NCBI GenBank assembly: GCA_021791755.1
Contig: JAJYWA010000001.1
Location: 5,416 to 69,415 of the forward strand
Direction: 5' to 3'
Origin: Actinomycetes bacterium
Lineage (GTDB): Bacteria > Actinomycetota > Acidimicrobiia > Acidimicrobiales > JAJZXF01
Length of the DNA: 64,000 nucleotides
Numbering within the stretch: position 1 is the first letter of the stretch; every line of letters starts with the position of its first letter. Positions 2,400-18,647 of the stretch are shown piece after piece. Made by a program: the position numbers and the translations under genes. The notes under the pieces were generated by a model that was not told the origin of the DNA, ran no database searches, and saw only the letters and a list, made by a program, of their open reading frames with translations.

Positions 2400-3025
2400 G
2401 CTCGAACTGCCGGCCGAGTTGGAGCGCACCTCCTTGCGATCTGGACCTGCCGGAACGCAGCGTGTCCTCGTGCGCTCCGCGGCAAGAAGACTCCCGCCCT
2501 CAGGCGGAAGATGAACCCTGCGCTGGCGCTTCAGCTCCTTGCTGGGGCGCTCCAACGGGTTTGCGGTCCACGGCTGACGCCACTGAGAGCGCGGGAAGGA
2601 ACTGAACGCAAGGGTCTCTTCATTCGGCTCATCCACGAGACCGGGCATCTATGCATCGACGAGCCGCGCTCGGCGAACGTCGTTCTCATGTCGTTCCAGC
2701 AGATCCGAGATCTCCTCTCTTGTCGCTTGGGCAAAGATCGTCCAGAGGCGGCAGACATCATCTCGCGGCCGCCCTTGGGCACGGCCACGAGCAGGTTTCT
2801 CTTTGCGAAGTGGACTCGGCAGCGTTGATACGGACGCCTTGGAAGCAACGGCCGATGGCCGCGGCACGGCCGGCGGCTTAGGTCGCGATGGTCTGTGGAC
2901 GATGCCCGATGGCTCGACGAGGCGCCCTCGCCGGCACGGAGCACGCCGAGCAGCGTGGACAGGCGATGCTTTTCAGTGGTGATCACTGGGTCGTTCTCCT
3001 GCCATGCATTCGGCCACCAGGGCAT
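2400..3025 (-). pseudogene. IS256-family (Mutator-type) transposase remnant: C-terminal half, frameshifted
   Basis: Three minus-strand frames carry consecutive IS256 transposase signatures: 'YQRCRVHFAKRNLL..VPKGG', 'LWTIFAQATREE' and 'TLAFSSFPRSQWRQPWTANPLERPSKELKRQRRV'. The N-terminal half is absent and there are at least 2 frame changes. Confidence 0.7.
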
Positions 3026-3137
3026 ATGGCGACCACCCCGCTAGAACCTTTGTGCTGCACCATCCTGGCGCCTCAAACCTCATCACTTGGGGGAGCTCAC
3101 ACTTTGAGCGGGACGCGCCTTCCAGGAATATTTAATG

Positions 3138-3169
3138 TGTGCACATAGCGTATAGCAAAGTGTACACTT
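3138..3169 (+). promoter_or_regulatory. AT-rich promoter/operator region of the Phd-VapC operon with two palindromes
   Basis: Perfect palindromes 'tgtgcaca' (3138-3145) and 'aagtgtacactt' (3158-3169) flank a 'tatagc' -10-like hexamer. They lie 8-40 nt upstream of the ATG at 3177. This is the locally lowest-GC stretch. Confidence 0.4.
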
Positions 3170-3176
3170 TCGTCCC

Positions 3177-3446
3177 ATGGAGGTCGGTATTAGAGAGCTA
3201 CGACGTAACCTCAGTGGCTACCTGGCCAAAGTTAGTGAAGGCGACGAGGTGATCGTCACGGACCGAGGTACCGCTGTCGCCAAGATTCTCTCGATCTCCG
3301 GTGACCGGGCCGGTGACCGGGCCTTCGACCGGGCAGTCGCGGACGGGCTCGTCACCCCGGCGTCGCACCGGGAGCGGAGTCGACCCGCTCGGCGGGTGAA
3401 GAGTAGTGCGAACGTAAGCGACCTAGTCGGCGACCAGCGTCGTTGA
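3177..3446 (+). CDS. Phd/YefM-type antitoxin
   Basis: 89 aa. 'IRELRRNLSGYLAKVSEGDEVIVTDRGTAVAKI' is the classic Phd/YefM N-terminal fold signature. Its stop overlaps the next start (TTGA at 3443-3446). Confidence 0.85.
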   Translation: MEVGIRELRRNLSGYLAKVSEGDEVIVTDRGTAVAKILSISGDRAGDRAFDRAVADGLVTPASHRERSRPARRVKSSANVSDLVGDQRR

Positions 3447-3874
3447 TCGTCTACTTCGAGACGTCCGCGATTGTGCCCATAGTGATCGAAGAGACGTCGA
3501 GCACTGTTGCGTCACGGCTCTGGGACGAAGCGGACCACGTCTTGTCATCACGTCTGGTCTACGCCGAGGGCCGCGCCGCGCTGGCTACGGCGCGACGTAT
3601 GGACAGCATCGACGAACAAGAGCTCAGAGAGGCCCTCGATGCCTTTGAGGCACTACACGACCAGCTCGACGTGATCGAGATCACCGAGGGGCTCGTCCGA
3701 GACGCTGGAGCCTTGGCCGAACAACTGAGCCTTCGGGGCCACGACGCCGTCCACTTGGCCTCAGCCCGCCTGGTAGACGACCCAGAGATGGTGATCGCGA
3801 CTAGAGACCAAGCTCTTATTGCAGCTGCCAGAGACCTGGGAATGGCTACAGCAGTCTGGACTCCCTCGTCCTGA
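3443..3874 (+). CDS. vapC: PIN-domain ribonuclease toxin
   Basis: 143 aa. 'IVYFETSAIV' supplies the first acidic PIN residue, and 'RGHDAVHLASA' matches the conserved D-A-x-H-L-A segment. Coupled to the upstream antitoxin. Confidence 0.88.
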   Translation: MIVYFETSAIVPIVIEETSSTVASRLWDEADHVLSSRLVYAEGRAALATARRMDSIDEQELREALDAFEALHDQLDVIEITEGLVRDAGALAEQLSLRGHDAVHLASARLVDDPEMVIATRDQALIAAARDLGMATAVWTPSS

Positions 3875-3924
3875 TGTGCGATACCGGACATCGTGCTGAC
3901 ACGCACCACTGCCTTTACCGTTGG

Positions 3925-3951
3925 CTGAGTCCAGGACTCCTGACACAGGGG
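3925..3951. repeat. 27-bp repeat, copy A (inverted partner at 17670..17696)
   Basis: 'ctgagtccaggactcctgacacagggg' equals the reverse complement of 17670-17696 at 26 of 27 positions. Confidence 0.9.
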
Positions 3952-4042
3952 GGCGCCCATAGTACCTGAGCTGGAACCATCCAACACCTGCGGCTTTCTG
4001 TGTGATCAGAACGCGCAGAATATTTCGACGATCTGGAAGGGC

Positions 4043-4700
4043 TTGGCAATGGCTGAAAAGGTTGCGAGACTGACTGAGGTGCAACAGCCGCTGCCGCTCT
4101 CTCCGGTCGGATCGGTTCAGATAGCGGACGGCATCGCGCTCTTCGAAGATGCGGATCACTCCGGCACGGTGTTCGTCTGGGGGCAGGCAACCTGGTGCTG
4201 GAGTGCGTCGGACCCGGCTATGCGCAGGCTCTGCGCTGTGCAACTCGTGAACGCGGACACAGGACGCCAGCGCGCCGTGTCGGGGTGGCCACGAAGGAGT
4301 CCCTCCTCGAGCTCGTCGATGCCGCCTGGGACCCTGGACGGAGCGTTGCCGGCGCCTGCGGTGAGCTCGATCTCTCCGAGAGGCGAGCGTACCGGTGGAT
4401 GAGACGAGCGTACCGGTGGATGGGGCGCCGGAAGATCTGGGAACTGCCGGAGCGGGTCGTCCGCCACAGCCTCATGCATGGATTGCTCGACAGCGACATA
4501 GCCACGATCGTGAAGCCCTACCCGCCTGGGAGGAGATCGAGCGCTCGCATCACAAGCTCACCTACCGGGCCTCTACCTCGGGCGCGTGTGGGCGTCGCCA
4601 TCGTCGCTGCGGCTTGCACCGACTGGCAAGGGGCTGCATCTCGAACCACCGCAGCCGGGCTTCTTCGTAGACACGCCATTCCCCGAGCGGGTCGAGCGCC
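4043..4700 (+). pseudogene. DDE (rve/integrase-core type) transposase remnant with HTH N-terminus, multiply frameshifted
   Basis: Three frames carry pieces: 'FVWGQATWCWSASDPAMRRLCAVQLV', an HTH-like 'RSVAGACGELDLSERRAYRW', and 'WEEIERSHHKLTYRAS', which resembles the 'DRSHRKLAHRGSY' segment of actinobacterial rve-type transposases. Contains a 21-bp tandem duplication at 4384-4425. Family assignment is from memory only. Confidence 0.45.
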
Positions 4701-5330
4701 GCCCGAGCCAGACTTCTACCTACGACGCGACACGCGTCACGAGGTGAAGTCAGACCTCACGTCATCGAGTGCCGTGTCAGCCGCAAGCAGGTCGTCGACA
4801 CCCTTGTCTCCGGTGAAGACCTCGTCCCAGGCCGAGATCGTCCACACCGACGCGCTGGACGCCGAGGGCCTTCTCGAGCTCGTCACGGCAAGAGCCAACG
4901 GGATCGTGAAACCCACGTCGACGACGCGACCCAGCCGATCCTGCTCGCTGCCTCGGCCAATGCACCACCGATGACCTAGGCATCGACGCGCGAGCTTATG
5001 GCGCTGTGCGCGATCGCCCAGCGCTTCGGCCGGCCGGACTTACCGCCGTCTGCCAGCGCCGGATCAGGCCTGCCTTCATGCCGGGATCAGCTGATGACTC
5101 CGAACAACGAGCACGACGGGAAAAACCCGGACATCCGCAACGCACGGGAGGCAGGCTTGGAATCACCGTGCCTTGGCCGGCTCGCCTATTATCGCAATCA
5201 AGGGCACCGGAACCCGACCGGGTGGGCCACGATATGTCGTCAGGTTCAACAAGACTCTCTGTCACGGAGTATGAACAGGTCATCTCGGGTTGACATCGGC
5301 ACGAGTGGAGGCAGGGAGTAAGGAGGGCTC

Positions 5331-6082
5331 ATGACAAACAGGCTGTCGATCTTCGTCGATGCCGGTCGCTTTGTCTCGGATCTAGCTACCTGGCTCTGTG
5401 ACATGTATCCCAACGAGGAGCTCCTGCGCACATACTGGTACGACGTCGCTAAGAACGTGTCGAGCACTGACCAACTCAATGTGGCTGCCTCCCTTTCGTC
5501 AAGATGCGCCTGGGTCACATCAACACCGCGGGCCAGCGGAAGGGGGTTGACATACTCATGGTCCAGAACTTAATGGTCTTGTCACAGAAGCGATCGATCC
5601 AACATGCAGTAGTGCTCTCGGGAGACGAGGATCTCCGGGAGGGCATCGAGTACGCCCAAGAACGCGGGGTACGGGTGGCGGTCGTCGGCATCGATGCGAG
5701 CGGCGATCTGAACCAGTCACCCGAGCTCGTGCGTGAAGCAGACCAGACACTGGTCCTTCCGGTCAATATCATCTCGAACAACCCCCACCGGACGCCGGCC
5801 GCTGTTCCGGTCGCACTGAGCGCCTCGGCGCCTCCGCCAATGTCCTCCTCGAATCGCCCACGTGACACAACGGCGCCCACAGCCGACAATCCGTTCGCGA
5901 CCCACGCAGTAGCCTTCACACATACCTGGCTCACGGAAGCCCCTCAGCGCTCCCTGACAAGCCTCGTCGAAGGGAGGCCGACGATTACGCGCGACATCGA
6001 CGCGCAGATGCTTCGCTTTGTGGCCTACCGTCGACAACGACGCCAGACTGACGGACATGCGAGGACGCACGCGGCGGAGTGA
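5331..6082 (+). pseudogene. NYN/LabA-like (DUF88) domain protein, interrupted by one frameshift near 5490-5500
   Basis: Frame 0 (5331-5573) gives 'LSIFVDAGRF...LLRTYWYD'. Another frame (from 5471) continues with 'QRKGVDILMVQNLMVLSQKRSIQHAVVLSGDEDLREGIEYAQERGVRVAVVG', the NYN core. An 'aaggaggg' RBS lies 6 nt before the ATG at 5331. Confidence 0.65.
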
Positions 6083-6155
6083 CCACGGATAACCTCTCCA
6101 GTCGTGTTCGCCAGGGCCCTGTTGGCCTTCGGGCGCAATCAGCAGCGAGTAAGCC

Positions 6156-6740
6156 ATGACTATCTATTTCACCGCCGACCAGCACTTCGGTCACCTGAAC
6201 ATCATCGAGTACTGCGGCCGGCCGTTTCACAGCGTCGGGGAGATGAACGCAATTCTCATCGCGAACTGGAACGCCGTCGTCGGCCAGGACGACACCGTCC
6301 ACGTCCTCGGCGACATCGCCATGGGTCGGCGGGAGGAGTCGATGCCACTCATCGGCCGGCTCGCAGGCCGCAAGATCTTGTACCCAGGGAACCACGACCG
6401 CTGCTGGTACGGCCACGGAGACCGTGCCCTCCAGCTCGAGCAGCAGTACCTCGACGCCGGGTTCGCAGAGATTCGCCAGGGTCCACGCACCGTGACGGTA
6501 GGCAACCGGGAGGTCATGGTATGTCACCTCCCGTACTACGGCGACAGCGACGACACCGAGCGCTACAGCAGGTTCAGACCTGCCGACAAGGGAATGTGGC
6601 TGCTCCATGGCCACGTCCACGAGAAGTGGCGCCAGCAGGGACACATGATCAACGTCGGCGTGGATGTCTGGAACTTCACGCCGGTCGCCGAAAAGGTGAT
6701 CAGCCGGCTGACGGACGCGACCCCGCTTGCGAGCTCCTGA
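6156..6740 (+). CDS. calcineurin-like metallophosphoesterase
   Basis: 194 aa. 'IYFTADQHFGH', 'VHVLGDIAMG', 'YPGNHDRCW' and 'LHGHVHEKW' are the four metal-binding motifs (DxH, GD, GNHD/E, GH). Confidence 0.85.
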   Translation: MTIYFTADQHFGHLNIIEYCGRPFHSVGEMNAILIANWNAVVGQDDTVHVLGDIAMGRREESMPLIGRLAGRKILYPGNHDRCWYGHGDRALQLEQQYLDAGFAEIRQGPRTVTVGNREVMVCHLPYYGDSDDTERYSRFRPADKGMWLLHGHVHEKWRQQGHMINVGVDVWNFTPVAEKVISRLTDATPLASS

Positions 6741-6841
6741 TGGGCCGTGCCTCGTGCCGACGACCATTCCCGCGACGATGCTCCAGCCGGACGTGCGGCG
6801 TCTCGATCGTCCCGGGAGTCTCTGTTCGGCCGCTAGGCGAC

Positions 6842-7228
6842 TTAGCTCAGGCTCAGCTCCCTCGCGGCTTCCGGCGCGATGGTCCTGCAGCTCGCCCGCG
6901 CAGCCACTCCTCCAAGCGGTCGCGACTGACCTGGTGGCCGCGATGGAGACGCGCTCACCACCAGCTGGAGATACTTGTAGTCGACATCGGGCGGGTACCG
7001 GAGCCTGCTGCGGACGCCGGGGGCCCACGCCCCTGGCAGATCGGGGTGGGCGATCTCGCTGGCTTCGTTGACCACCTGGCGAGGCATGGCAATTCGCCCC
7101 TCCTCTACCAGCTGCTCCAACAGCTTGAAAGCGGCCCACTGGTCCGACACGCTGATGAGCGTCTTGAAGTTGATCAGTGCAGAAGTGTCCACGATCCAGA
7201 CCGGATCTGGCTCAAGTCCCGGTAGCAA
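6842..7228 (-). CDS. DUF4411-like PIN-fold protein (putative toxin/effector partner of the ImmA protein)
   Basis: ORF 6842..7318. The N-terminal 'VWIVDTSALINFK' resembles a PIN-like first strand, and the position immediately after an HTH-ImmA gene is the usual DUF4411 context. The start is uncertain (TTG 7228 overlapping the ImmA stop, or GTG 7192). The C-terminal third is low-complexity. Confidence 0.5.
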   Translation of the reverse strand: MLPGLEPDPVWIVDTSALINFKTLISVSDQWAAFKLLEQLVEEGRIAMPRQVVNEASEIAHPDLPGAWAPGVRSRLRYPPDVDYKYLQLVVSASPSRPPGQSRPLGGVAARASCRTIAPEAARELSLS

Positions 7229-8372
7229 CGAGGCTCCGGAGATCGTCGACCTGTCCCGTGGTGAGATGCAGGCAGTCCGAGAGATCCGAGCGAGTGAGCC
7301 GGTTGTGCTCGGTAGCATCGATCAGGATGGCGGGAATTCGCGCTCCGAGCTCGCCGAGACGCTTCTCGGGGGCGGGCCGGCCCCCGCCGCCTCCCGCCTG
7401 GGCATTCCAGTCACGATCGGCAAGCTCGCGCTCAACCATTCCGTACAAGGACGCCGGCGCAAGGCGTAGCTCCTGGAGCCTCAGGCTGGCGGCGCGGGTG
7501 CTGACATTGAACCGTCCCGCAATCCGTCGAGCGGTCTCCACATCGCTGACCTGGGCGTGTTCCGACATCCCGAGACGCGACGTGACGGTACGCAAGGCGT
7601 CAGCCGGGATGAGGAGCTCGGCGGCGAACCGATCGCACCAACGCTCGGCGCCCACCTCGACGTCGCTCGGTACGACGAAACCGATACAGGCCGCGTCCGT
7701 GCGAGTGACGAGATGCCCGACCTCATGGAAGAGGGTGAAGATCCGCGCCGTCGGGTGGTAGGCGGTGTTGACCCCGACAATCGGGGCGTGATCGTCCCAG
7801 GCAGAAAAGCCCCGCACGCTCTCTCGACCGAGTTGTAGCTGAACCACGAGGATGCCGAGCTCCTCGAGGACTTCTCGCCACCGCCGGAAAGCCTCGCTCG
7901 GGCTCTCCCACGCAAGCTGCTCCGCTGGCGTAACCCCGAGCATCCGTCGCACGCTTGCCGCTGCATCAAGCGAGTTGTCGTTCGTCGAGAACTGAGGCAG
8001 CGCCACCGGGGCGTCGTCCTCGTCACGCAGCACCCACCCGACGATCTCTTGCAGCCGACGCGCCCAACGGATCTGGCGAACCTCTTCCTTCGACAGGCGG
8101 TGCCCCATCAGGCCAGGGACGGAGCGCAGGCTCGTCGGCAACCCTGCCCGGCTGGGCGGCTCGGGAAGGAAGAAGAGGGCAGTCGGTCGCCGAAGCAGTT
8201 CAGCGAGCCGGCTGAACTGTCCGCGAGTGGGATACGCCTCGCCAGCCTCCCAAGCGCGAACAGCGTCGGGCTCTACGTCCAAATCGGCAGCAACCTCGGC
8301 ACGCGTCAGCGCCGCTTCTTCACGAGCCCACACCAGCACCGAGCCGGTAATGGGCACCTCTCGTCGAGCCAT
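7212..8372 (-). CDS. XRE-family HTH fused to ImmA/IrrE (DUF955, COG2856) zinc metalloprotease
   Basis: N-terminal HTH: 'LVWAREEAALTRAEVAADLDVEPDAVRAWEAGEAYPTRGQFSRLAELL'. The HExxH motif 'FHEVGHL' is encoded at 7713-7727, followed by 'ERWCDRFAAELLIPADAL'. The ATG at 8372 lies 2 nt after the helicase stop. Confidence 0.85.
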   Translation of the reverse strand: MARREVPITGSVLVWAREEAALTRAEVAADLDVEPDAVRAWEAGEAYPTRGQFSRLAELLRRPTALFFLPEPPSRAGLPTSLRSVPGLMGHRLSKEEVRQIRWARRLQEIVGWVLRDEDDAPVALPQFSTNDNSLDAAASVRRMLGVTPAEQLAWESPSEAFRRWREVLEELGILVVQLQLGRESVRGFSAWDDHAPIVGVNTAYHPTARIFTLFHEVGHLVTRTDAACIGFVVPSDVEVGAERWCDRFAAELLIPADALRTVTSRLGMSEHAQVSDVETARRIAGRFNVSTRAASLRLQELRLAPASLYGMVERELADRDWNAQAGGGGGRPAPEKRLGELGARIPAILIDATEHNRLTRSDLSDCLHLTTGQVDDLRSLVATGT

Positions 8373-8374
8373 CG

Positions 8375-11300
8375 TCACAGCTTGTCGCCGATCGAGAGCT
8401 CTCCCAGCTGCTCGGCGATCGTGATTGGGGCAGGGGCGATGGCAAGCCATGCGATTAGGTGGACGTCGTCGTGGTCGATCTCCGGCAGGAGCTCAGGAGG
8501 CGGGCTCGGCTCCAGACCGAGCTCTGCCACCAGATCGGCAATGCCGCTGACCTGGTCGACCGGAAACTCGGACGAGGCCATGGCGGCACGCACAAGCTTG
8601 AGGATCCGCTCGGGGTATGGGGTCTCGAGGATCTCGACTAGCCGGTCGGCCTCTTCCACCGTCATCTCGGCAGGCCGGTGGTCCCTCACCAGCTCGGCTG
8701 CCCGCTGCATCGTGAGGGGAACGGGGGGAACCAGGTTGGCCGGATCGGCTGCCTTGTTCCAGCTCTCTACGATGTCGTCGAGCGCGTACCGCCACGCATC
8801 GAAGGCTCGCGCGTAGGTACCATCCGAAAGGACCCTCGGCGTGTCGAACCCTTCGGGCGGCCTGGCGGTGTCGAGGCAGGTAAGCGTGTCTGCCGTTACG
8901 GTCGGCGACGCTTCGTCGCTCAGGTCGACATAGCGGAACTGCGGGCGCTCGTAGTCCGCGACCCGGGCGCAGAACACGTAACCCGGACCGCTGCGCCCGG
9001 TCGTCATGCCGCTGCCCGTGCCCCAGGGCAGAGCCCTGATGCGCGCGTCGAGATCGTCGTTCTCGAGCGCTCGGCGCAGCTCCTGGCGGTACTCCTCCCC
9101 GCTCAGCGCCTGGCGTCCCGCGCCCCCTTGCTCGAAGATCCCCGCATCTCCGGCGCGTAGGCGCTCGATCTCCTCACGGGTCTCGGTGAAGACCACGTCC
9201 TCGGTCCTGCTGCCGGGCAGGATCTCGCCACCGATGCCCACCGAAGCGGCGGCCTGCTTGATCTTTCGGTGCAGGCGCTCTTCGAGACCGAGAAGCTCGT
9301 CGAGCTGCGCGTCGGGGAAGATGCAGCGAAGGAACACCTCCCGGTGCGGCGAGCCGATGCGGTCGACGCGTCCGTGGCGCTGGACCAGGCGCATCGGGTT
9401 CCACGGCAGGTCGTAGTTGACGATGTGTCGTGCCTGCTGGAGGTTGACGCCCTCGGCAAGCACATCGGTCGTCACCACGATGTCGTAGCGGTCCTCGTCT
9501 CGCCCGTCGGGCGCGTCGGTCGTTCTCGGGGCAAAGCCCCAGAGCACGTCGTCCTTCGTACCTCTGGAGCCAGAGATCGACGCAATGCGACCCGCATATG
9601 CCGCCAGCCTTGGGTCGGTCCGGGTGACCTCCTTCAAGTGCTCGGTTATCCACTCCACCGTATCGGCGAAGTAGCTGAAGACCAGCGCCTTTCTCTTGTC
9701 TCGGACGTCGTCGTCTCCGATGCCCTCGAGCGACGCTTGGTCTGCGATCGCCGCAAGGTGCTCGCCGAGGACCCGTAGCTTGGGATCATCCTCCCTGCGC
9801 ACCCGCTCAGCCTCCTCCGCGAAGGCGAGGAGAAGGTCCCGATCTCCCCGCACGTCGGCAGTGAGCGCGTCGGTATCGTATGCCGCCGCGTCGTCGAGCA
9901 CGTCGCGATGACTGTCAAGATAGTTGTCGTAGCCGTCGACGTCGTCGGAGTCGGTGGCCGCCCAGTCCGCCAGGGCCGCGCCGGTCGCCACCTTGCCCTT
10001 CTCCAGCAGAGAGAGGAAGGCGTCATGGCTATTGGCCATCTTGCGACACGTGCAGGCAAAGGCGTAGGCGGAGGACTCGAAACGCTTCAGGAGCCCGGAG
10101 CGCAAGAGGCCCGCGAGCTGCACCTCGTAGGCATCGGCAACGCCGTCCAAGCGATAACGCGAGGGCGCGTAGCGCCCCAGGGTGAGCACCTCCGGGTCGC
10201 CGACCGACCCGCCCGGGAGGGGACCGTCGAGCGCGTGAGCAAAGCGCTGGAAGAAGCCGGGCATGCTGTCATCGAGGTCGTAGGCAACCTTGATCACCCG
10301 AGGGGTAGGGAAGGTGATCGACACCTGACGGCCACCGATCTCGAGGCTGTCGCTCGGGTAGTAGCGCTTCACGAACGGCCGAGTCCGCCGTACAGCGACG
10401 GCATCGAGCACGTCGAAGAGGTACTCGGGCGAGAGGTCATCGGGGTTCATCGCCATCGCCGCGGCGAAGTGGTCTCGCAGCGAACGGATGCCCACGTCGG
10501 CGAACGCGCTGTCGCTCTTCAAGAAGTAGCCGAGCAGAAAGTAGAGATCCCAGAGGGAGTTGTTGACTGGCGTGGCGGTGATGAGCACTAGGTCCTTCGG
10601 CGGGGAGCCCGCCAGCAACCTGCGGAGCGCCGCCGCTCGCTGGGTCGTCGGGTTCCGCAGGTTGTGCGCCTCGTCGATGACCACCATCGCGTACTCGATG
10701 GGGTTGAACCGGAAGGCCTGCCTTGACCCCTCCGGGTTGAGCCGTCGGTCGCTGGCGAGCTCCTCGAACGAGCACGTCTCGACGCCGAGCTGGTAGGTGG
10801 CGAGCAGATGGCGCCATGGTCCGTCACGAAGGGTGGCCGGGGCTATGACGAGCACCCGCTGGCGGCGCTCCTCCACTGCGTGACGGATGAGCTCCCCGGC
10901 TAAGAAGGTCTTGCCGAGCCCGACCTCGTCCGCGATAAGCACCCCGTGGCGACCTTCGAGAAGGCGCCGCGCCCGGAAGAGCCCGTCGCGCTGGAACGAC
11001 GTCAGGTGGATACGGGAAGCGCCATCGGCCGCAGCCTCATCGGCCAGCTCGGCGCCGTAGCGCTCGAGGAGCATACGCAGGTAGACGAGCTGGGGTGGGT
11101 GAGCCTCGAAGCGCTCGGCGTAGAGCGCGGCGAGGTCGTAGGCATTGGCCCTCTCCCACAGCTCATCGAACCATTCGAGGACCTGGTGGACCACGTAGGG
11201 CTGGTACTGGCCGAGGTTGAGCTCGACATTGGTGGCGAGACCGGCGTAGGTGAAGTTCGAGCTGCCGGCGATCACGCCTTCTTCGTGGCTGGCGACGATG

Positions 11301-11752
11301 AAAGCCTTACCGTGGAGGAAGCCGTCCTCCAAGCGTCGCACCTCCACCTTCCCCGAATGAAGCCACTCGACGAGGCGCCGGGCGTCGGCGTCGGCTTCCT
11401 TCGTGAAGCCGAGGAGGTCCCGGTCCTCTGCCAGGGTTCGGGCATGGCCTTCGAGCACACGGCGCAGCTCGGCGCGCGCCGCGCGGGCCGGCGACGTGGA
11501 GTCGGCGAGGCAACGGACGGCGCGCTCGGGCACGGTCGGCTCTGCCCCAAGGAGGAGACGGACCTTCGCCACCTGGTCCAGCTCGTCAGCGAGGAGACTG
11601 TAGCCGCCGGGGTTGAAGTAGGCCGTTGCGATCGCGAGCTCCGGCGGATTAGCAAGCGTCTCCCTGAGATGCGCCAGGTGAGCGCAGATGGCATCGGCCA
11701 CCCGCTCGCCAGACCGGTTGGTGGCGAACTCCGGCTTCGCGGAAAGGCTCAC
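8375..11752 (-). CDS. PLD/HKD-nuclease domain fused to an SNF2-family helicase
   Basis: N-terminus: 'LHGKAFIVASHEEGVIAGSSNFTYAGL' (HxK...GSxN; HGK at 11306-11314). SNF2 core: 'LIADEVGLGKT', 'VIDEAHNLRN', 'ITATPVNNS'. Helicase-C: 'VTTDVLAEGVNLQQARHIVNYDLPWNPMRLVQRHGRVDRIGS'. The GTG start at 11752 overlaps the methyltransferase TGA (GTGA, 11749-11752). Confidence 0.9.
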   Translation of the reverse strand: MSLSAKPEFATNRSGERVADAICAHLAHLRETLANPPELAIATAYFNPGGYSLLADELDQVAKVRLLLGAEPTVPERAVRCLADSTSPARAARAELRRVLEGHARTLAEDRDLLGFTKEADADARRLVEWLHSGKVEVRRLEDGFLHGKAFIVASHEEGVIAGSSNFTYAGLATNVELNLGQYQPYVVHQVLEWFDELWERANAYDLAALYAERFEAHPPQLVYLRMLLERYGAELADEAAADGASRIHLTSFQRDGLFRARRLLEGRHGVLIADEVGLGKTFLAGELIRHAVEERRQRVLVIAPATLRDGPWRHLLATYQLGVETCSFEELASDRRLNPEGSRQAFRFNPIEYAMVVIDEAHNLRNPTTQRAAALRRLLAGSPPKDLVLITATPVNNSLWDLYFLLGYFLKSDSAFADVGIRSLRDHFAAAMAMNPDDLSPEYLFDVLDAVAVRRTRPFVKRYYPSDSLEIGGRQVSITFPTPRVIKVAYDLDDSMPGFFQRFAHALDGPLPGGSVGDPEVLTLGRYAPSRYRLDGVADAYEVQLAGLLRSGLLKRFESSAYAFACTCRKMANSHDAFLSLLEKGKVATGAALADWAATDSDDVDGYDNYLDSHRDVLDDAAAYDTDALTADVRGDRDLLLAFAEEAERVRREDDPKLRVLGEHLAAIADQASLEGIGDDDVRDKRKALVFSYFADTVEWITEHLKEVTRTDPRLAAYAGRIASISGSRGTKDDVLWGFAPRTTDAPDGRDEDRYDIVVTTDVLAEGVNLQQARHIVNYDLPWNPMRLVQRHGRVDRIGSPHREVFLRCIFPDAQLDELLGLEERLHRKIKQAAASVGIGGEILPGSRTEDVVFTETREEIERLRAGDAGIFEQGGAGRQALSGEEYRQELRRALENDDLDARIRALPWGTGSGMTTGRSGPGYVFCARVADYERPQFRYVDLSDEASPTVTADTLTCLDTARPPEGFDTPRVLSDGTYARAFDAWRYALDDIVESWNKAADPANLVPPVPLTMQRAAELVRDHRPAEMTVEEADRLVEILETPYPERILKLVRAAMASSEFPVDQVSGIADLVAELGLEPSPPPELLPEIDHDDVHLIAWLAIAPAPITIAEQLGELSIGDKL

Positions 11753-14700
11753 CGCACCTCCTTTGCCAGCCGGCCCATGTATGCAAGTGCAGCCTCGAGC
11801 CGGACCTGGTAACGCCATCCGAAATGGAAGGTCTCGAAGATATGCGTGAGGTCGGTCTCGTCGAGGCCGTAGCAGAGCGCGACAGCAGCGTCGAGCTCGG
11901 CGACGAGGTCCTCCTTCTCGGACGCTTTGACGCTGCCGACCGGCACGCCGACCATTTCTGCCCAGGCGGCATAGCGGCGATCGACCGCGGCGAGCCGACC
12001 GGCGATCTCCTCCACCCGGCGACGCAGCGGGTCCTTCCGGCTGGGGCGGGGGATAGGGAAGGCGTTGAAGAGGTGGAAGTTCACGTGCGTCTCCACCACC
12101 CGGCGCGCGTACCAGTCGAGCGGCGCCGAGCAGAGGACCCCCAAGAGGTAGGCCTGGTCGCGCTCGTCACCCTTCGGCCACAGGAGATAGGGAGCCTGAT
12201 TGGTGATCACGATCTCGGGCGGGACGAGCGCGGCGATGACCGTCCGGCTGTTGGTGCGGTTCGTGACGTCTCGGAAGGCGATACGCGGGTGGAAGCACGG
12301 CAACGTGGTGCGCTCGGCAGCCCAGTCGCGGGGCATCTCGGCGAAGGCGGAGCGCGCGGTGCGATGCTGGCGGAGGCGCTTGTGGTAGAGGACCTCGGCG
12401 ATCTGGTCTGGATCGACCCAGGCGTAGTAGACGCCGGTGTCGGGCTCCCAGATGTTGAAGGAGGCGCCCTTGTAGACCGGCCACATAGAGTCATCGGCGT
12501 CCTCGTCATCGAGAACGAAGTGCTTCTTGTCATTCGTCGCGTTGAAGTCGCCCTGAACGGGCCGACAATACCAAGCACCGGGAGTTCCGATCGACGGATG
12601 TGCTCGCAGCTTCAAGAAGATCCGGAGCGCCTGCTCCGTCGGAATGAGCGGGAACGACGCACCTTCAGACCAGCTCCGCAGGTCTGCTGCGGCGATCTCT
12701 GCAGGTGGATGCGTCAATCCGGCGCGGTAGGCGCCGAGGCTCGCGTAGGGGCCGCGAAGGTGGATGACGCCTGACTGACCGGGGCCTTTGCGGATGACAA
12801 GGAGACCGATGGTGTAGCGGTGCTCGGCATCGTCGAACACCCAACCTCCGCTGTTCAGCAGCATCGTGACGTCCTCGAAGGCGCCGCCGTCAAGAACAGC
12901 CTCGCGCCAGCGCGTCGATCCCGCGCCAGACAGGGCAGTGCGTGGGAGAACGACACCAATCGCGCCACCTTCGCGGACGAGCAGCCAGAAGCGCCAACAG
13001 AACGCCTTGTAGAGATCCGCATTGCCCTCATTCATCTGGGGGAACTGCCCGCACGACAGCAGGGCGCGGAGCTCGTCGGTCGTCGCCACTTCGGCCTCAT
13101 ACTCGCTCACGACGTCAGCTCGCTCCCGCCTCAAGCGAGTGATTTCGCGCTTCCGTGCGCCCGCAGAGAGTGAGCGAATTCCAGGAAACCGCAGTGACCA
13201 GAAGGAGTGCTCGTCGACCATCACCTCCTCCCAGGGCGGATTCCCCACGATAACGTCGAAGCCCGGCCGCTCCCGCAAGAAGACCTCCGGGAACACGACC
13301 GGAAAGTGCACCGACCCAAGCGATGCGACGAGAGCCCGCGCTGCGGCAAGATCCTCGTGGGCCGCGAAGCGCTCCTCGTCGACGCCGTAGGGGAGCGCGG
13401 CCTTTCCAATTCTTGCGGAAACGAGCAGGTCGAAGAGGTCCTTCGCTGGCTGGACCGCGGCCAGCGCCTCGAGGTGCGCCGATCGAGCAGCAGCCACCTC
13501 AATGGTCGTGGTCTCGCTGATAGCGGCCAGGCGCCGTAGCGCCTTCTCCGCCCGGGCGAGGAATTCCATGAGCTGGCCATAGAAGAGCGAGTCATGGCCA
13601 GCCTCGGACCCCGGCTCCAAGACGGCGACCGCCTCGTCTATCGTACCGATGCCGGTCAAGCTGTCGCCTTCGACGAGGTTGTGATCGAGGAACGAGAGCG
13701 GCAGGCCGGGCACGAAGGTGTGGATCCAGACCGCCAGCCGGGCGAGCTCCACTGCGATGCGGTTGCGGTCGACCCCGTAGATGCAGCGCCGGGCCACCTG
13801 CCTGCGGAGCAGGCTGGTCGTCTCGATCTCCACCCCGTCGGCGAGCTCGCCAAGTGCACTGAACGCCGCGGTGCGCAACCGTTCGAGCTCGGCGAGAACA
13901 GTTGGTACCGGGTGCAGTGATAGGAACGCCGAGAGCCTGGCCTCGATGCGGTCGACAGCGGCGACGAGAAAATGACCTGAGCCCATGGCGAGATCCACGC
14001 AGCGAAAGTCGAAGAACCGGTCGGCCGCACTGGCTTCGTCCCCGGCGTCGAACAGGGCCCGGAGCGATGCGATGTGGTCTTCGAGCGCCGCGTCGAGCGC
14101 GTGGTCGAGCAGGTGCTCGACGGCGAAGGGCTTCGTGAAGTAGGAGCCGGTTGCCTTGCGGGCCCCCGATCGGTTGTGGAAGTAAACGTCGCCTGCGTGG
14201 ACGACGACGTTGCTATGTCCAGTGGCTGCAGGGATGAAGTTCCCCTGGGAGTCGAGAGCGAGGTCGTCCGGGGCAACAGACAGGCGCGACTCGAGCAGGC
14301 CCTCGTAGATCGTGCCGAACTCGCGAACCGACAGGCTCCGGAAATCAACTGGCCCAACGACGCCGTCAGGACCGACGTCTACCAGGAGCGCGGTGAGGGC
14401 CGGGCCGAACGCTGCGTCAGACAGCGAGAGCGTGGCGATCGCGGCTCCCGCGGGATTGACCTGCGGGTCGTCGCTGAACAGGCCACCGTCGTAGGGGGGA
14501 ACACCCCACCCGGCGTTGCCAGCTTCGACCGCGTGCCAGAGCGCTCGCACGTCGTCCCACAGGTCCGTCGCCTGGTCGTCGAATGGTGCGGTGTCCTTGG
14601 CTCGCCACGCGGCAAGCCGGCGCGCCAGGCGCTTCAACGAATGGTCGTTGTACCTGCCGTTAGTGCGGTAGGGGAGAAGATCCTTGTCCTCGGCATAGGC

Positions 14701-15810
14701 GATGAAGAGGAGCCGGAACAACACCACGAGGGTCTCCTCGTAGGCGGCGGCGAGCTCCTCCTCGTCGGGGTCGGCCCGATGTGCCCCCCGGGCCACCGCG
14801 GTAGCAAGCTGCGGCACGGCTTCGAAGTAGATGCGGTCGCGCAGCCGCGCCCCGAGTTCGGCGGCGAAGTCTGCGGAACGATCGAGGATCTCCTCGATGG
14901 TCCCTCTGTCTTCCAGCGCTCCGGCGCCGAACAGGAGCGGCACGAACCCCGCGTGGTCTTCGGGGAGGAGCGCCAGGTCTACTTCGACATAGGTGTCGGC
15001 CCGCCCCTTGCGTCCCACACCCACCTCGACCCGGGCCGAGTACAGCCGCACCTGCCGGGACCGCGTCAGCAGCACCCACGGGAGCCCTTCTCGGTCGGCG
15101 AGCGCGAGCGCCTGGGAGACAGGGCTCGTGCCGAACCGTTCCCCAGCGGCATCGAAGGCCTCCCCCTCGTCGAGGAAGATCGCAACGGCGCGCTTGGCAT
15201 CCCCCGCCTTGAGGACCGACGACGTGATCCCGAGAGGCTCCACGCTGAACCCGAGCCGCTCGACGAGCGCCCGACCACGCAGCGTGAGCACTTCCTTGCC
15301 TCGCGCGCAGGCCTGGCGCCAGTCCGATCGCTGAGGCACGCCGTGGCGGAGCTCCTGGGTGGCAAGAAGCCCGCTGTTGCGCAGCCCTGGGAGGTCCGAG
15401 CCCACCTCGGGAAGCATGGCCACGAGCAGCCGCACGGCGGCATGCCGGCTGGGCTCGGCCAGCGCAGCACTCGCCAGGCGCTCCACCTGGGACAGCTCCA
15501 GATCAGCCACGAGCGGCGGGTTCTCGCCGACTACGCCGCAGACGGTGACCCGGACACCGTCGTGGTCCTCGTAGGCGACGACGAGGAGGAGTGGGCTGGG
15601 CCGACGGCCCTGGCGGAGCTTCCAGAGAGCCCTCACGTCGTCGGCCTTCGGGCGGCGCCGGCTGGTGGCCAGCGCGACCTCGAGCGCATGGTCACCCTCG
15701 CCAAAGAATAGCATCTGTGGAGCTATGCCGATCGGGGCCGCGTCGGGCGCCGACCACCGACGAGGTTCGCGATCAGCAAGGAAGTCGTCCGCGATGGTCT
15801 GCGCCCTCAA
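11749..15810 (-). CDS. large Eco57I/PglX-type N6-adenine DNA methyltransferase (type IIG-like architecture) with an uncharacterised ~330-aa N-terminal domain
   Basis: 1353 aa. Motif I is 'CVDLAMGSGHFLVAAV' (about 13968-13997) and motif IV is 'VIVGNPPWEEV' (NPPW at 13231-13242). The C-terminal target-recognition-like region reads 'RIAFRDVTNRTNSRTVIAALVP...LLGVLCSAPLDWYARR'. TTG start at 15810, with 'ggggag' 11 nt upstream and an in-frame TAG just before. Confidence 0.9.
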   Translation of the reverse strand: MRAQTIADDFLADREPRRWSAPDAAPIGIAPQMLFFGEGDHALEVALATSRRRPKADDVRALWKLRQGRRPSPLLLVVAYEDHDGVRVTVCGVVGENPPLVADLELSQVERLASAALAEPSRHAAVRLLVAMLPEVGSDLPGLRNSGLLATQELRHGVPQRSDWRQACARGKEVLTLRGRALVERLGFSVEPLGITSSVLKAGDAKRAVAIFLDEGEAFDAAGERFGTSPVSQALALADREGLPWVLLTRSRQVRLYSARVEVGVGRKGRADTYVEVDLALLPEDHAGFVPLLFGAGALEDRGTIEEILDRSADFAAELGARLRDRIYFEAVPQLATAVARGAHRADPDEEELAAAYEETLVVLFRLLFIAYAEDKDLLPYRTNGRYNDHSLKRLARRLAAWRAKDTAPFDDQATDLWDDVRALWHAVEAGNAGWGVPPYDGGLFSDDPQVNPAGAAIATLSLSDAAFGPALTALLVDVGPDGVVGPVDFRSLSVREFGTIYEGLLESRLSVAPDDLALDSQGNFIPAATGHSNVVVHAGDVYFHNRSGARKATGSYFTKPFAVEHLLDHALDAALEDHIASLRALFDAGDEASAADRFFDFRCVDLAMGSGHFLVAAVDRIEARLSAFLSLHPVPTVLAELERLRTAAFSALGELADGVEIETTSLLRRQVARRCIYGVDRNRIAVELARLAVWIHTFVPGLPLSFLDHNLVEGDSLTGIGTIDEAVAVLEPGSEAGHDSLFYGQLMEFLARAEKALRRLAAISETTTIEVAAARSAHLEALAAVQPAKDLFDLLVSARIGKAALPYGVDEERFAAHEDLAAARALVASLGSVHFPVVFPEVFLRERPGFDVIVGNPPWEEVMVDEHSFWSLRFPGIRSLSAGARKREITRLRRERADVVSEYEAEVATTDELRALLSCGQFPQMNEGNADLYKAFCWRFWLLVREGGAIGVVLPRTALSGAGSTRWREAVLDGGAFEDVTMLLNSGGWVFDDAEHRYTIGLLVIRKGPGQSGVIHLRGPYASLGAYRAGLTHPPAEIAAADLRSWSEGASFPLIPTEQALRIFLKLRAHPSIGTPGAWYCRPVQGDFNATNDKKHFVLDDEDADDSMWPVYKGASFNIWEPDTGVYYAWVDPDQIAEVLYHKRLRQHRTARSAFAEMPRDWAAERTTLPCFHPRIAFRDVTNRTNSRTVIAALVPPEIVITNQAPYLLWPKGDERDQAYLLGVLCSAPLDWYARRVVETHVNFHLFNAFPIPRPSRKDPLRRRVEEIAGRLAAVDRRYAAWAEMVGVPVGSVKASEKEDLVAELDAAVALCYGLDETDLTHIFETFHFGWRYQVRLEAALAYMGRLAKEVR

Positions 15811-16492
15811 CTCGAGCTCGGCTCCCCGAAAATACGACGTGGGCTACAGCGCATTCATTCCAGCGTACAAGACGGGTACGACACGGACGGGGACCACGAA
15901 GCTGCGATGAGCGCATCGCGTAATCCCTCATACCTCGTCGCGTGGCCCACACTGCCGTGCTCGTCCGCAGCGGCGCTCGCTCGCGCCAGGCACGCCGGTG
16001 ACTTACAACGGCGGAACAGGGCTTGCAACAGGACTCCGACCAGCGGAGTGATCTCACTCGACGGGCCTCAGTGTGGTCGTTCCCACGCGCGCACCCCGAT
16101 CGCAGGCGTTGCAGCAGACCTACCCGGCTTCGCCGACGCCGATCTGATCGAGGGGCCCGGAGCTCGACGCAACTTGCGGGCGTAACGTTCAAGGTCATCC
16201 GCGTACAGACGCGTCGTGCGTCCCTTGCGCGTTACCCACTGTCTATTCGCGGACGAGGTGGTGTAAGGCGTCCAGTGGGTTGTCCGGGCTATTGAGCGTG
16301 TTCAACAGTCAGCGTCGGGGACCCAACCGGTCCAGAGCGTCCACCGGCCGCCAGAGGCGAGCCCGTGAGACAAAGAAAGCCTCGGAGGTCTGAGTTGCAC
16401 GCGACGCTGTCGCACACCCGCCGAGCGCGGAGCTAGCGCTGGCGAAGTGAAACAGGCTCTCCTATCCGACGTGGTGGCCGGGCCAACCAGGC

Positions 16493-16885
16493 CTACTCGA
16501 CAATCCGGCGCAGGCCTTGGGCGATCTCGGCGACGGGTTGCCGGCCGGCCGCCAGGCCCATCACGAAGCCGTACACGTCGTCGTTCGACGCGTGAGTTGC
16601 CTCCACGCCGTTGAGCTGCAGGAACACGGCGGTGGCCAGCCACCCGAGGCGCTTGTTGCCATCGACCAGAGGGTGGTTCTTCACAGTGGACTGCAGCAGG
16701 GCCGCCGCCTTGAGCCAGATGTCCGGGTAGGCATCCTCTCCGAAAGCGCTGGAGCTCGGGCGGGCAGCCGCCGACCCGAGCAGACCGAGGTCGCAAACCG
16801 GAGGCGGGTCACCGAGCAGCTGCGCGGCCAGGGCGACGAGGTCTTCGACGTCGAGATACTCGATGCCGCTTTGCTCAGCGGCCAA
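16493..16885 (-). CDS. doc: Fic/Doc-family toxin (death-on-curing)
   Basis: 130 aa. 'NHPLVDGNKRLGWLATAVFLQLNG' matches the Doc variant of the Fic motif (HxFxDGNKR). Confidence 0.9.
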   Translation of the reverse strand: MAAEQSGIEYLDVEDLVALAAQLLGDPPPVCDLGLLGSAAARPSSSAFGEDAYPDIWLKAAALLQSTVKNHPLVDGNKRLGWLATAVFLQLNGVEATHASNDDVYGFVMGLAAGRQPVAEIAQGLRRIVE

Positions 16886-17078
16886 GGCGGTCCAGGGCCT
16901 CGGCGTGGACCTCCATCACACGCTCGGCCGCGTGGCTAACGCGGTCACGATGCTCGGCTCGCGCCACGTAATCCCGGACTGCCTGGCGCGCTGCTTCTTG
17001 CATCGAGATCCCGTCGAGGTCGGCCCTTCGCTGCAGGGCCGCTTGCTCCTCGTTCGTGAGCCTCAGAGTCATCGCCAT
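16875..17078 (-). CDS. ribbon-helix-helix antitoxin of Doc
   Basis: 67 aa. 'MTLRLTNEEQAALQRRADLDGISMQEAARQAVRDYV' is an RHH/CopG-like pattern. It overlaps the doc start by 11 nt. Confidence 0.75.
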   Translation of the reverse strand: MAMTLRLTNEEQAALQRRADLDGISMQEAARQAVRDYVARAEHRDRVSHAAERVMEVHAEALDRLGR

Positions 17079-17106
17079 AGGTTCTATGGTATCAAGTTGA
17101 TACCAT
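17075..17106 (-). promoter_or_regulatory. nested palindromic operator at the RHH/Doc operon start
   Basis: A 15-bp palindrome 'ccatag gtt ctatgg' (17075-17089) covers the ATG itself. It overlaps a 21-bp perfect palindrome 'atggtatcaa g ttgataccat' (17086-17106). The stretch is locally AT-rich. Confidence 0.5.
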
Positions 17107-17669
17107 CAGGGCATCGCCTACTTCTGTTGCTTCGACGCCTTTACACTTCGGCGCTTGTCGCTCCTTGGTGGCTGCCCTGATAGCGGACGATGGCATTCGA
17201 ACAAGCCGTAGACGGTACCGCCAACTCTCTGCTGGTCGCCTCGCGGGCAACCAGCACGACGCGGATCCCCTTGGTTGCTCTCATCCGGCGGCTGAAGTCG
17301 GACATATTGCGGCTGCTGGCAGACACCTCCATCAGTAGCTAGGCGCCGTTGACCGATACAGCTTGTCCGTGGTCTGCAGCGACCACAAGAATTCCACACT
17401 GATGACCGGCTCGGAGACCTCCTCGGCGTGCTTGCCGGCGCCGCTCGGAAGGAGAAGTTCGACGCCTACCGCAAGCTCGGACTCCAGCTGACCCACGACC
17501 CAGCCCGCAGAGAGCGACCGACGAGTCGCACCTCAGGCCCGACGGCAACAACTCGCCGCCACGATGCCGACGGCAAAACACGTGCCTGACCTCGGGCGCG
17601 CCGACCAAGCCGCCCGAACGCGTGGGCCAGAGTCAGTGAATGGAGGACTGATGGCTCTGCACGGACTTT

Positions 17670-17696
17670 CCCCTGTGTCAGGAGTCCTGGAGTCAG
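17670..17696. repeat. 27-bp repeat, copy B (inverted partner of 3925..3951)
   Basis: 'cccctgtgtcaggagtcctggagtcag'. It lies inside the zinc-ribbon-coding part of a serine-recombinase remnant. Confidence 0.9.
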
Positions 17697-18189
17697 GTGC
17701 GGATGCTGTCGACGTGTCATCCAGGGCGCGGTCGGCGGTCGGCGGACCTACTACCGCTGCAAGTTCGCCGACGAGTACGCCCTCGCCAGCGAGCTCAGGC
17801 ACCCCAAGTCGGTCAACCTCCACGAAGACGGCCTAGTACACCCAGCTCGATGCCTGGCTGGCTCAACTCTTCGGAGAGGAGCACCCGGACGACACCTGCT
17901 CGGCCATGACCGAGGCCATGGCCGAGCAGCCGGCCATCGTTGCCGAGTGGATCAAACAGGTGACCAAAGAACGAGCGTCGGCTGAGGCGGAGTTGGAGCA
18001 GGTACGCCTCACCTCGACCGGGCAAATAAGCATCGCCCAGCTCCGTGCCGAACTGGAAACGGTCGGCGGGCTCCTCCCCTGCCCGAGTCGAGCAACCCAG
18101 TACCTGAAGGCCCGCTTCTACGAAGAAGTCGGCCTCGAAGGCACTTACGATCCCCACGCGAAATTCCTCGAGGCACGTGTCCTCAACGG

Positions 18190-18208
18190 TCGTGTCGGAG
18201 GGGGGACT
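18190..18208. repeat. 19-bp direct repeat = displaced copy of the tRNA-Leu 3' end (att-like)
   Basis: 'tcgtgtcggaggggggact' is identical to 20986-21004. Confidence 0.9.
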
Positions 18209-18307
18209 CGCTGCAACCCGCAATACGAGGTAGGGACCACCGAACTGTGGCTCTAAGCAGCCTGAACAGGTAATACGATGAGACTCACCGGACGGTGCTC
18301 GGGGATT

Positions 18308-18343
18308 GCTGCAAGACTGCCTAGAAGTGTGTAGTCTTGCAGC
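18308..18343 (+). promoter_or_regulatory. 11-bp inverted repeat abutting the antitoxin start codon (operator or RBS-occluding hairpin)
   Basis: 'gctgcaagact' (18308-18318) and 'agtcttgcagc' (18333-18343) are separated by a 14-nt spacer. The ATG is at 18345. Confidence 0.45.
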
Positions 18344-18344
18344 C

Positions 18345-18647
18345 ATGAGCGCACTCCGTATGCCTGTCGCCACCGCCGCACGCAAGGGTGTCTCGAAGCT
18401 CGCCGCGGAAGCCGAGACACATCGGGTCATTCTCACCAGTCACGGCCGTCCGGTGGCCGTTGTGGATTCAGCCGAACGCCTCGACGAGGACATTCGGCGA
18501 GTCCGTGAGGCAAGTCAGTTGGTCGTCGAAGCCGCTGGGGAGCTGGCTCTCCAACGCTCCAACCGGCTGTCCCTGGAAGATGTGTGTGCCAGGTTGAACA
18601 TCGACCCTCAACGAGTCCGCTCCCGTGCGGCAGCGAAGCGAGGGTGA
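18345..18647 (+). CDS. Phd/YefM-type antitoxin
   Basis: 'VSKLAAEAETHRVILTSHGRPVAVVDSAERLDE' is a Phd/YefM signature. Start taken at ATG 18345 within ORF 18306..18647. Its stop overlaps the next start (GTGA, 18644-18647). Confidence 0.75.
   Translation: MSALRMPVATAARKGVSKLAAEAETHRVILTSHGRPVAVVDSAERLDEDIRRVREASQLVVEAAGELALQRSNRLSLEDVCARLNIDPQRVRSRAAAKRG

Follow-up and report, generated by a model that had tools for sequence, protein, structure and literature searches.

Proteins of the phospholipase D (PLD) family and SNF2 proteins recur as separate genes in the restriction-modification-associated defence island system (DISARM; DrmC and DrmD), in Dpd (DpdK and DpdE) and in Zac candidates. Fused forms have also been described. 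The 'HKD+Snf2' family C3a139 was listed in 2018 as a type III CRISPR accessory family (PMC6546367), and the effector of Type-2 bacteriophage exclusion (BREX)-related systems is a Swi2/Snf2 helicase with an N-terminal HKD endonuclease, its N6-methyltransferase being supplied in trans (PMC12839542). SauUSI and the MANTIS protein MtsD, both helicase-PLD enzymes of solved structure, are constitutive dimers in which the two PLD halves form one active site (10.64898/2026.09.23.753747). On the Lactococcus lactis plasmid pLd8, reported in 2018, orf34 encodes a type IIG-like methylase without a restriction domain, and PLD was inferred to supply restriction (PMC6098607). Milman et al. (2023) described Cj0031-like type II restriction-modification (RM) genes flanked by genes for PLD (cd09178) and SNF helicase proteins (PMC9881135). 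Here we analyse a related arrangement in a 64,000-nucleotide stretch of an Acidimicrobiia genome (assembly GCA_021791755.1, contig JAJYWA010000001.1, positions 5,416 to 69,415), referred to below as the window, in which a gene for a PLD domain fused to an SNF2 motor overlaps the end of a gene for an N6-adenine DNA methyltransferase. We favour, with moderate confidence, the reading that these genes form a two-gene, ATP-dependent RM-like defence module situated in a decayed island.

A PLD domain with a single HKD motif fused to an SNF2 motor

Read from its first ATG, the fusion ORF (open reading frame) spans 8375..11818 on the minus strand. A GTG codon at 11750-11752 gives a protein of 1125 amino acids and overlaps the methyltransferase stop codon TGA (11749-11751) as GTGA; an AAGGAGG Shine-Dalgarno sequence, read directly from the DNA, lies 4 nucleotides (nt) ahead of this GTG, at 11757-11763. 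Public gene calls on contig DAHWOW010000008.1 of the metagenome-assembled genome (MAG) GCA_027339165.1 use the same GTG start and the same length of 1125 amino acids. By this arrangement the methyltransferase and fusion genes are predicted to be translationally coupled. Pfam placed PLDc_2 (8.5e-11), SNF2-rel_dom (1e-14), ResIII and Helicase_C (4.7e-15) along one uninterrupted chain, with a single PLDc_2 match per chain. Together with the invariant residues described below, this confirms the central observation of the initial annotation, namely that an HKD motif runs without a break into a complete SNF2 and helicase-C core. The PLD part had been put at about 230 residues; its N-terminal placement holds, but the domain itself extends over approximately residues 1-215 and is followed by a helical linker reaching approximately residue 245.

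We next consider the conservation of the PLD domain, using an alignment of 21 fusion-protein homologues of 64-87% identity. Residues H147, K149, G163-S-S-N166, E177 and N47 are invariant; the motif string LHGKAFIVASHEEGVIAGSSNFT corresponds to residues 146-168. Of 119 close homologues of full length, 118 have the strict pattern HxK...GSxN and one reads GLSN; an exhaustive search gave 57 full-length representatives, 54 of which have the pattern too. Because the pattern is kept in 118/119 homologues and its residues are invariant in the alignment, the HKD element is a conserved domain and not a chance motif. N166 and E177 are separated by 11 positions, which agrees with the spacing of N125 and E136, which we take to be the corresponding residues of BfiI. 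Modelled with AlphaFold2 from 25 sequences, residues 1-245 reached a score of 72.8 in the predicted form of the local distance difference test (pLDDT), with a confident beta core and a low-confidence helical insert at approximately residues 76-130. When this model was compared with the PDB using Foldseek, SauUSI (7clg_B), an ATP-dependent restriction enzyme, ranked on top (E 3.8e-6), phosphatidylserine synthase chains took ranks 2-3, and further matches included Nuc (1byr, 3.6e-4), Zucchini, BfiI (2.6e-3) and NucT. The structural comparison with PLD nucleases that the initial annotation had proposed was therefore positive, with SauUSI, Nuc, Zucchini and BfiI among the matches. A PDB sequence search with the same domain gave marginal PLD matches only (E 0.035-0.55). 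The features expected of the PLD/HKD superfamily, HxK...GSxN and a downstream Glu on a PLD fold, are all present, and the model supports a nuclease-type PLD fold.

The same domain, searched alone against defence profiles, matched DISARM DrmC, DpdK, ZacB and the N-terminal part of PADLOC PLD_Helicase, as well as the N-terminal part of NCBIfam NF042964 (2.8e-9). Its fusion to a DNA motor and the matches to DrmC and DpdK favour DNA over lipid as the probable substrate. An exhaustive HMMER search of 1.84 billion representatives with the PLD domain returned 1198 matching clusters at E<=0.001, of which 114 reached E<=1e-30. Of the 150 matches listed, those with at least 1000 amino acids were mostly 1070-1200 amino acids long, and nearly all carried the PLD domain at the N-terminus.

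The motor is, by its motifs, a true SNF2 ATPase. Walker A G278-L-G-K281, D360-E-A(H/Q), TATPVNN and QRHGRxDRIG are invariant in the 21 homologues, so that Walker A, DEAH/Q, motif III, the motif VI arginines and the inter-lobe helical insertion of the SNF2 family are all represented, and PDB sequence matches of the fusion protein were to RapA, ISWI and Snf2. Against PADLOC the whole protein scored best with C3a139 'HKD+Snf2' (3.5e-46) and DrmD (8.6e-37), followed by PLD_Helicase, BrxHI, DpdE and HmaA; the C3a139 and DrmD matches span the helical insertion and lobe 2. A match to ZacC was also obtained. Since the PLD domain alone matches DrmC, DpdK and ZacB, and the whole protein DrmD, DpdE and ZacC, the fusion can be regarded as a covalent form of the PLD and SNF2 couple of those systems. 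In the manner of a 'Rosetta stone', fusion here and separate partners in DISARM, Dpd and Zac argue that the two activities work together. The scores on NCBIfam models lie far under the curated cut-offs (DISARM_DrmD, 157 bits against 610; NF042964, 151 bits against 1100).

Beyond the motor, the last 295 residues gave no match in Pfam, PADLOC or NCBIfam. Modelling of the whole protein with AlphaFold2 from 21 sequences gave a poor result (pLDDT 59; predicted template modelling score, pTM, 0.39), and Foldseek with this model returned generic SF2 matches only, with template modelling (TM) scores below 0.2. We left this region unclassified because the model was poor and no profile matched; it may serve as a contact for the methyltransferase or as a DNA reader. 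Conservation of the fusion protein is even along its length, with no stretch as variable as the methyltransferase C-terminus. Architectural variants were seen among the homologues: P0260 has a C-terminal HARE-HTH and P0074 a DUF262 domain. In P0209 (1955 amino acids) a weak N6_Mtase-like region precedes HKD-SNF2 in one chain; we set this protein aside as evidence of linkage, its N-terminal part not being BLAST-similar to the window methyltransferase and its Pfam match being marginal.

The methyltransferase, its linkage to the fusion gene and the island

The gene upstream of the fusion encodes a protein matching Pfam Eco57I (1.2e-12), PADLOC REase_MTase_IIG PDLC03620 over its full length (5.7e-279) and PADLOC DrmMI over the catalytic core only (2.7e-68); a PDB sequence search with it gave no match. 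It consists of a conserved N-terminal and helical region, a catalytic core and a poorly conserved C-terminal third. In an alignment of 28 homologues, motif I (D606-x-AMGSGHF) and motif IV (NPPW, residues 857-860) are invariant. Windowed conservation is 0.5-0.78 in the core and 0.22-0.40 over the last 350 residues, in a comparison that includes some truncated ORFs. Because the C-terminal third varies as a target-recognition region would, we presume it to be one. If the protein were a type IIG enzyme, then a gamma-class N6-adenine methyltransferase core, a recognition region and a PD-(D/E)xK endonuclease domain should occur in the same chain. The first is present (NPPW) together with the presumed second, and the third was not found: residues 164-330, which are conserved, contain neither an invariant Lys nor a PD-(D/E)xK pattern among the 28 homologues, and no nuclease Pfam, of MmeI type or other, matched the protein.

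Relatives of the pair were collected by a scan of one genome per species, in which 497 were returned and 80 loci kept. In every one of the 74 related loci with enough flank, the fusion gene has a homologue of the methyltransferase upstream of it, on its own strand. The initial annotation had assigned the modification function to the upstream gene, acting in trans, and this holds up: the methyltransferase is a separate, apparently coupled gene, linked in 74/74 loci and without a recognisable nuclease motif. In 41 of the 74 loci the methyltransferase and helicase genes are within 110 nt of each other; in the other 33 they are 260-2700 nt apart, and these gaps often hold a same-strand ORF of 225-280 amino acids (L014:9282-9956, L037:9240-9953, L055:9177-9971). 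The window has no such intergenic ORF. Some relatives carry a RAMA reader gene between methyltransferase and helicase, an arrangement that recalls the DUF3780-RAMA fusions of Type-2 BREX-related systems; this RAMA-domain ORF may have a reader role comparable to that of DUF3780.

When neighbouring ORFs were clustered across the 80 loci, no further partner was widely conserved. After the methyltransferase, the commonest real neighbour is a gene for a DUF222 and HNH endonuclease protein, found directly downstream of the helicase in 21 of the 80 loci (e.g. L024:13445-14902) and absent from the window; the remaining neighbours are housekeeping genes. The DUF222-HNH gene may represent a mobile HNH element or else encode an accessory nuclease. 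On a second metagenome contig (L085:1171-5231) the helicase protein is identical in sequence to that of the window. Its methyltransferase gene carries a single-base deletion at gene position 1416 (approximately 14395 in the window), outside any homopolymer, that splits it into ORFs of 476 and 745 amino acids; should this deletion be genuine and no artefact of assembly, the nuclease-motor can be tolerated even where the methyltransferase is not intact.

The related loci come mostly from Acidimicrobiia MAGs, many of them of named sponge-symbiont genera (Candidatus Poriferisocius, Poriferisodalis), and also from Thermoleophilia, Blastococcus, Caldilineaceae and Dehalococcoidia. Plasmids carry the pair too, in Mycobacterium gallinarum (64% identity), Rhodococcus and Euzebya and, among haloarchaea, in Halalkalicoccus and Halorubrum lacusprofundi. 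Two of these records, M. gallinarum and H. lacusprofundi, were inspected, and both label the methyltransferase 'hypothetical protein'.

In the window the pair lies within a region of approximately 18 kb (approximately 2400-21000) between housekeeping genes and tRNA-Leu(GAG), with the toxin-antitoxin pairs, NYN-domain gene and recombinase remnant listed in Table 1. From this content we regard the region beside the tRNA gene as a decayed genomic island. A second copy of the tRNA-Leu 3' end, sought to delimit the island, was not found. The rest of the window is of housekeeping character (UvrABC, triose-phosphate isomerase, an AftD-like transferase and similar genes). Directly behind the fusion gene, beginning 2 nt past its stop, is a gene for a helix-turn-helix (HTH) and ImmA/IrrE metallopeptidase fusion, which among the 80 related loci recurs only in L004 and, weakly, in L006. 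It is probably a locally acquired regulator outside the conserved core, comparable to the CapH/CapP-type modules that accompany other defence systems; a literature search for the PADLOC label RmrA, one of the models it matched, gave nothing relevant. The small ORF that follows is possibly the PIN-like partner often seen with HTH-ImmA genes, and both are present only in the closest relatives.

Table 1. Positions of the fusion gene, its parts and the surrounding features (window coordinates; aa, amino acids).
Feature	Position	Strand	Basis or remark
Predicted HKD (PLD) nuclease-SNF2 translocase fusion gene	8375..11752	minus	1125 aa from GTG start
Single-HKD PLD domain, aa ~1-215	11108..11752	minus	Pfam PLDc_2, AlphaFold2 model, Foldseek, defence profiles
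Catalytic motif stretch, aa 146-177: L-H147-G-K149 ... G163-S-S-N166-F-T ... E177	11222..11317	minus	Alignment invariance
SNF2 ATPase lobe 1, aa ~246-500	10253..11017	minus	Pfam SNF2-rel_dom and ResIII, invariant motifs
Walker A, GLGKT	10907-10921	minus	Within SNF2 lobe 1
DEAH motif	10664-10675	minus	Within SNF2 lobe 1
Helical insertion (aa ~501-685) and ATPase lobe 2/Helicase_C (aa ~686-830), including motif VI QRHGRVDRIG	9263..10252	minus	Pfam Helicase_C 4.7e-15
Family-specific C-terminal region, aa 831-1125	8375..9262	minus	Conserved within family
N6-adenine DNA methyltransferase, Eco57I/type IIG/DrmMI-like, 1353 aa	11749..15810	minus	Pfam, PADLOC; upstream of fusion gene
Putative translational coupling signal (Shine-Dalgarno and GTG/TGA overlap)	11749..11763	minus	Sequence reading
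HTH (XRE) and ImmA/IrrE metallopeptidase fusion, 386 aa	7212..8372	minus	Pfam HTH_3/HTH_31 and Peptidase_M78; PADLOC RmrA and CapP models
Small ORF, ~119-128 aa	6842-7201	minus	Next after HTH-ImmA gene; no family match
Phd/PIN toxin-antitoxin pair	3177-3874		In island
NYN-domain gene	5504-6082		In island
RHH/Doc toxin-antitoxin pair	16493-17078		In island
Serine-recombinase zinc-ribbon remnant	20121-20723		In island
tRNA-Leu(GAG)	20988-21072		Region border

A proposed mechanism and its competitors

From these features we infer a defence function and, within it, a site recogniser, dimerisation, translocation and cleavage. In the scheme we favour, the PglX/DrmMI/type IIG-like methyltransferase would mark host DNA and most likely also supply site recognition through its own variable region, and the fusion protein would be the restriction subunit. 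Its single-HKD domain would form one active site together with that of a second copy, most likely in a standing homodimer as in SauUSI and MtsD, and the SNF2 motor would move on double-stranded DNA with ATP, so that unmethylated foreign DNA is reached and cut. Since PLD and SNF2 parts are here joined in one chain and the methyltransferase is the sole other conserved partner, the two would work as a single unit.

Several points weigh against this scheme. In the fusion protein Ala154 stands where the textbook HxK(x)4D motif has its Asp, and the conserved 295-residue C-terminal region is left unexplained by the scheme. A strongly diverged, cryptic nuclease may be present in the N-terminal region of the methyltransferase; we keep this in view because the best PADLOC model for that protein is labelled a type IIG restriction enzyme-methyltransferase. 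In the literature we searched, no experimental study of the two-gene form was found. MtsD nuclease activity was not reconstituted in vitro (10.64898/2026.09.23.753747), and in DISARM DrmC is reported to be non-essential for defence, with no nuclease activity seen for DrmC or DrmAB. From the dispensability of DrmC and the failed reconstitution of MtsD it follows that PLD-helicase effectors may need partners or conditions that are not obvious.

The DrmC and DrmAB observations would also suit BREX/DISARM-like defence that proceeds without DNA cutting, in which the SNF2 motor, acting on unmethylated DNA, would obstruct or displace the replication or packaging of phage, and the HKD domain either could be dispensed with or would do no more than bind DNA. 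H147, K149, N166 and E177 are, however, invariant in the family down to representatives of approximately 50% identity, which argues for selection on catalysis, and we consider this possibility very unlikely. The initial annotation had proposed that cleavage depends on two translocating motors meeting. If the fusion protein were a monomer, each motor would carry one half-site, and DNA would be cut where motors from separate unmethylated sites meet head-on, in a manner similar to the type ISP enzymes, which cleave on collision. The presence of a single HKD motif per chain, which calls for two chains for activity, is in keeping with such a collision, as is the preference of MANTIS restriction in vivo for inverted site pairs. 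BfiI and Nuc, on the other hand, are constitutive dimers, and in the standing dimers of SauUSI and MtsD the PLD site is formed beforehand; because of the latter two, a standing dimer is at least as likely as collision. The sequence itself does not separate the two arrangements, and the working model for MANTIS attributes the effects of site orientation to translocation and encounters with site-bound complexes (10.64898/2026.09.23.753747). We regard gating by collision as unlikely, and the interpretation given in the initial annotation as supported in part.

Alternatively, the two genes might not form one system at all. The methyltransferase could be a self-contained type IIG RM enzyme with a diverged N-terminal nuclease, with the HKD-SNF2 protein either as an accessory or as a modification-dependent enzyme (type IV, SauUSI-like) that acts independently and is only carried along. 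The full-length REase_MTase_IIG match (5.7e-279) and the conservation of methyltransferase residues 164-330 are consistent with this, the helicase's unassigned C-terminal region could act as a reader, and a RAMA reader gene does stand between the two genes in some relatives. Yet the N-terminal region of the methyltransferase lacks a PD-(D/E)xK pattern, an invariant Lys and any nuclease Pfam match, and a type IV enzyme beside an active adenine methyltransferase would risk attacking its own host. Linkage in 74/74 loci with translational coupling is not expected of independent systems. We hold this reading to be quite unlikely. A non-defence pair with a host epigenetic or chromosome-maintenance function, combining methylation with remodelling or repair, would draw on the housekeeping roles of SNF2 relatives such as RapA. 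It is highly improbable given the patchy distribution, the plasmid and island locations with toxin-antitoxin and recombinase-remnant neighbours, the variable C-terminus of the methyltransferase, and best profile matches that all belong to defence families.

The preferred reading, a two-gene RM-like module, can also be taken one step further, to a distinct minimal class of ATP-dependent RM. Here a PglX/DrmMI-type methyltransferase, without the AAA+ loader of MANTIS and BREX, would directly license the HKD-SNF2 motor, and half-sites would join only when two motors meet on unmethylated DNA. We put this forward as a speculative extension of doubtful standing. If it were true, the way in which BREX/DISARM-type methyltransferases direct restriction could be reconstituted most simply with this pair.

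Comparison with described systems

Type ISP enzymes are single polypeptides with an Mrr-like PD-(D/E)xK nuclease. The window pair resembles LlaGI and LlaBIII of this type in combining a nuclease, a double-stranded DNA translocase, a methyltransferase and a recognition domain, with ATP-driven long-range communication as the common principle; it differs in being made of two polypeptides with a PLD nuclease and an SNF2-type motor, and the arrangement of all domains in a single chain with an Mrr-like nuclease was not found. SauUSI (type IV) and MtsD of MANTIS (Gao_RL) share with the fusion protein an N-terminal PLD nuclease on an SF2 motor, and MANTIS also takes its specificity from a separate methyltransferase. 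The window motor is, in contrast, SNF2/RapA-like, neither SauUSI nor MtsD was among the PDB sequence matches listed, and SauUSI targets modified DNA through its own recognition domain. The AAA+ ATPase MtsA and MtsB of MANTIS are not represented, there being no additional conserved genes.

Counterparts of three class 1 DISARM components occur in the window pair: a DrmD-like SNF2 helicase, a DrmMI-like methyltransferase and a DrmC-like PLD domain, the last fused to the helicase, unlike in DISARM. The DrmD and DrmMI relationships are those of homologues and not of equivalogs, the DrmD score falling below the curated cut-off and the DrmMI match covering the catalytic core only. Neither DrmA (a YprA-type helicase) nor DrmB (DUF1998) was found among the window ORFs scanned with Pfam or the conserved neighbour clusters of the 80 loci, a scope that applies equally to the two genes considered next. 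With Type-2 BREX-related systems the pair shares an N-terminal HKD domain on a Swi2/Snf2 helicase, in place of a TUDOR domain, although the window helicase scores higher on DrmD than on HmaA models. The DUF499 AAA+ ATPase of these systems was not found, nor was the standalone DUF3780 gene that they carry in 98% of taxa. In composition the pair thus approximates DrmMI plus a DrmC-DrmD fusion, that is, class 1 DISARM without DrmA and DrmB, and could equally be described as a Type-2 BREX-related system that lacks both the DUF499 ATPase and DUF3780. Because the defining partner genes are missing, we rejected membership in DISARM, ARMADA, Type-2 BREX-related systems and MANTIS.

The domain order of the window protein is that of PADLOC C3a139, PADLOC PLD_Helicase and NCBIfam NF042964 ('phospholipase D-like domain-containing anti-phage protein'), profiles of 895-948 amino acids that do not include its C-terminal region. 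The lactococcal pLd8 pair matches it in gene content: orf33 and orf34 combine an N-terminal PLD, SNF2 and Helicase_C protein with an adjoining type IIG-like N6-methyltransferase (PMC6098607), and the related plasmid pJM1F shows a PLD-SNF2/methyltransferase pair as well. The window helicase is approximately 31% identical to the lactococcal helicase over part of its length. The lactococcal gene order is the opposite, with the helicase gene first, and that locus, unlike the one in the window, includes an invertase together with an invertible specificity cassette of TaqI-like type. The initial annotation had noted that its proposal would fail if the fusion already belonged to a named system. This is so in part, since the Type-2 BREX-related effector is such a fusion (PMC12839542) and the bare two-gene layout, with the same inference drawn from it, dates from 2018 (PMC6098607). 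We therefore regard the window pair as a distant member of an unnamed two-gene kind already described bioinformatically; the fusion itself is not new. The value of the locus is practical, for research on methylation-based defence, and carries no conceptual surprise: a two-protein system should be easier to reconstitute than the four- to six-gene BREX, DISARM and MANTIS systems to which it is compared.

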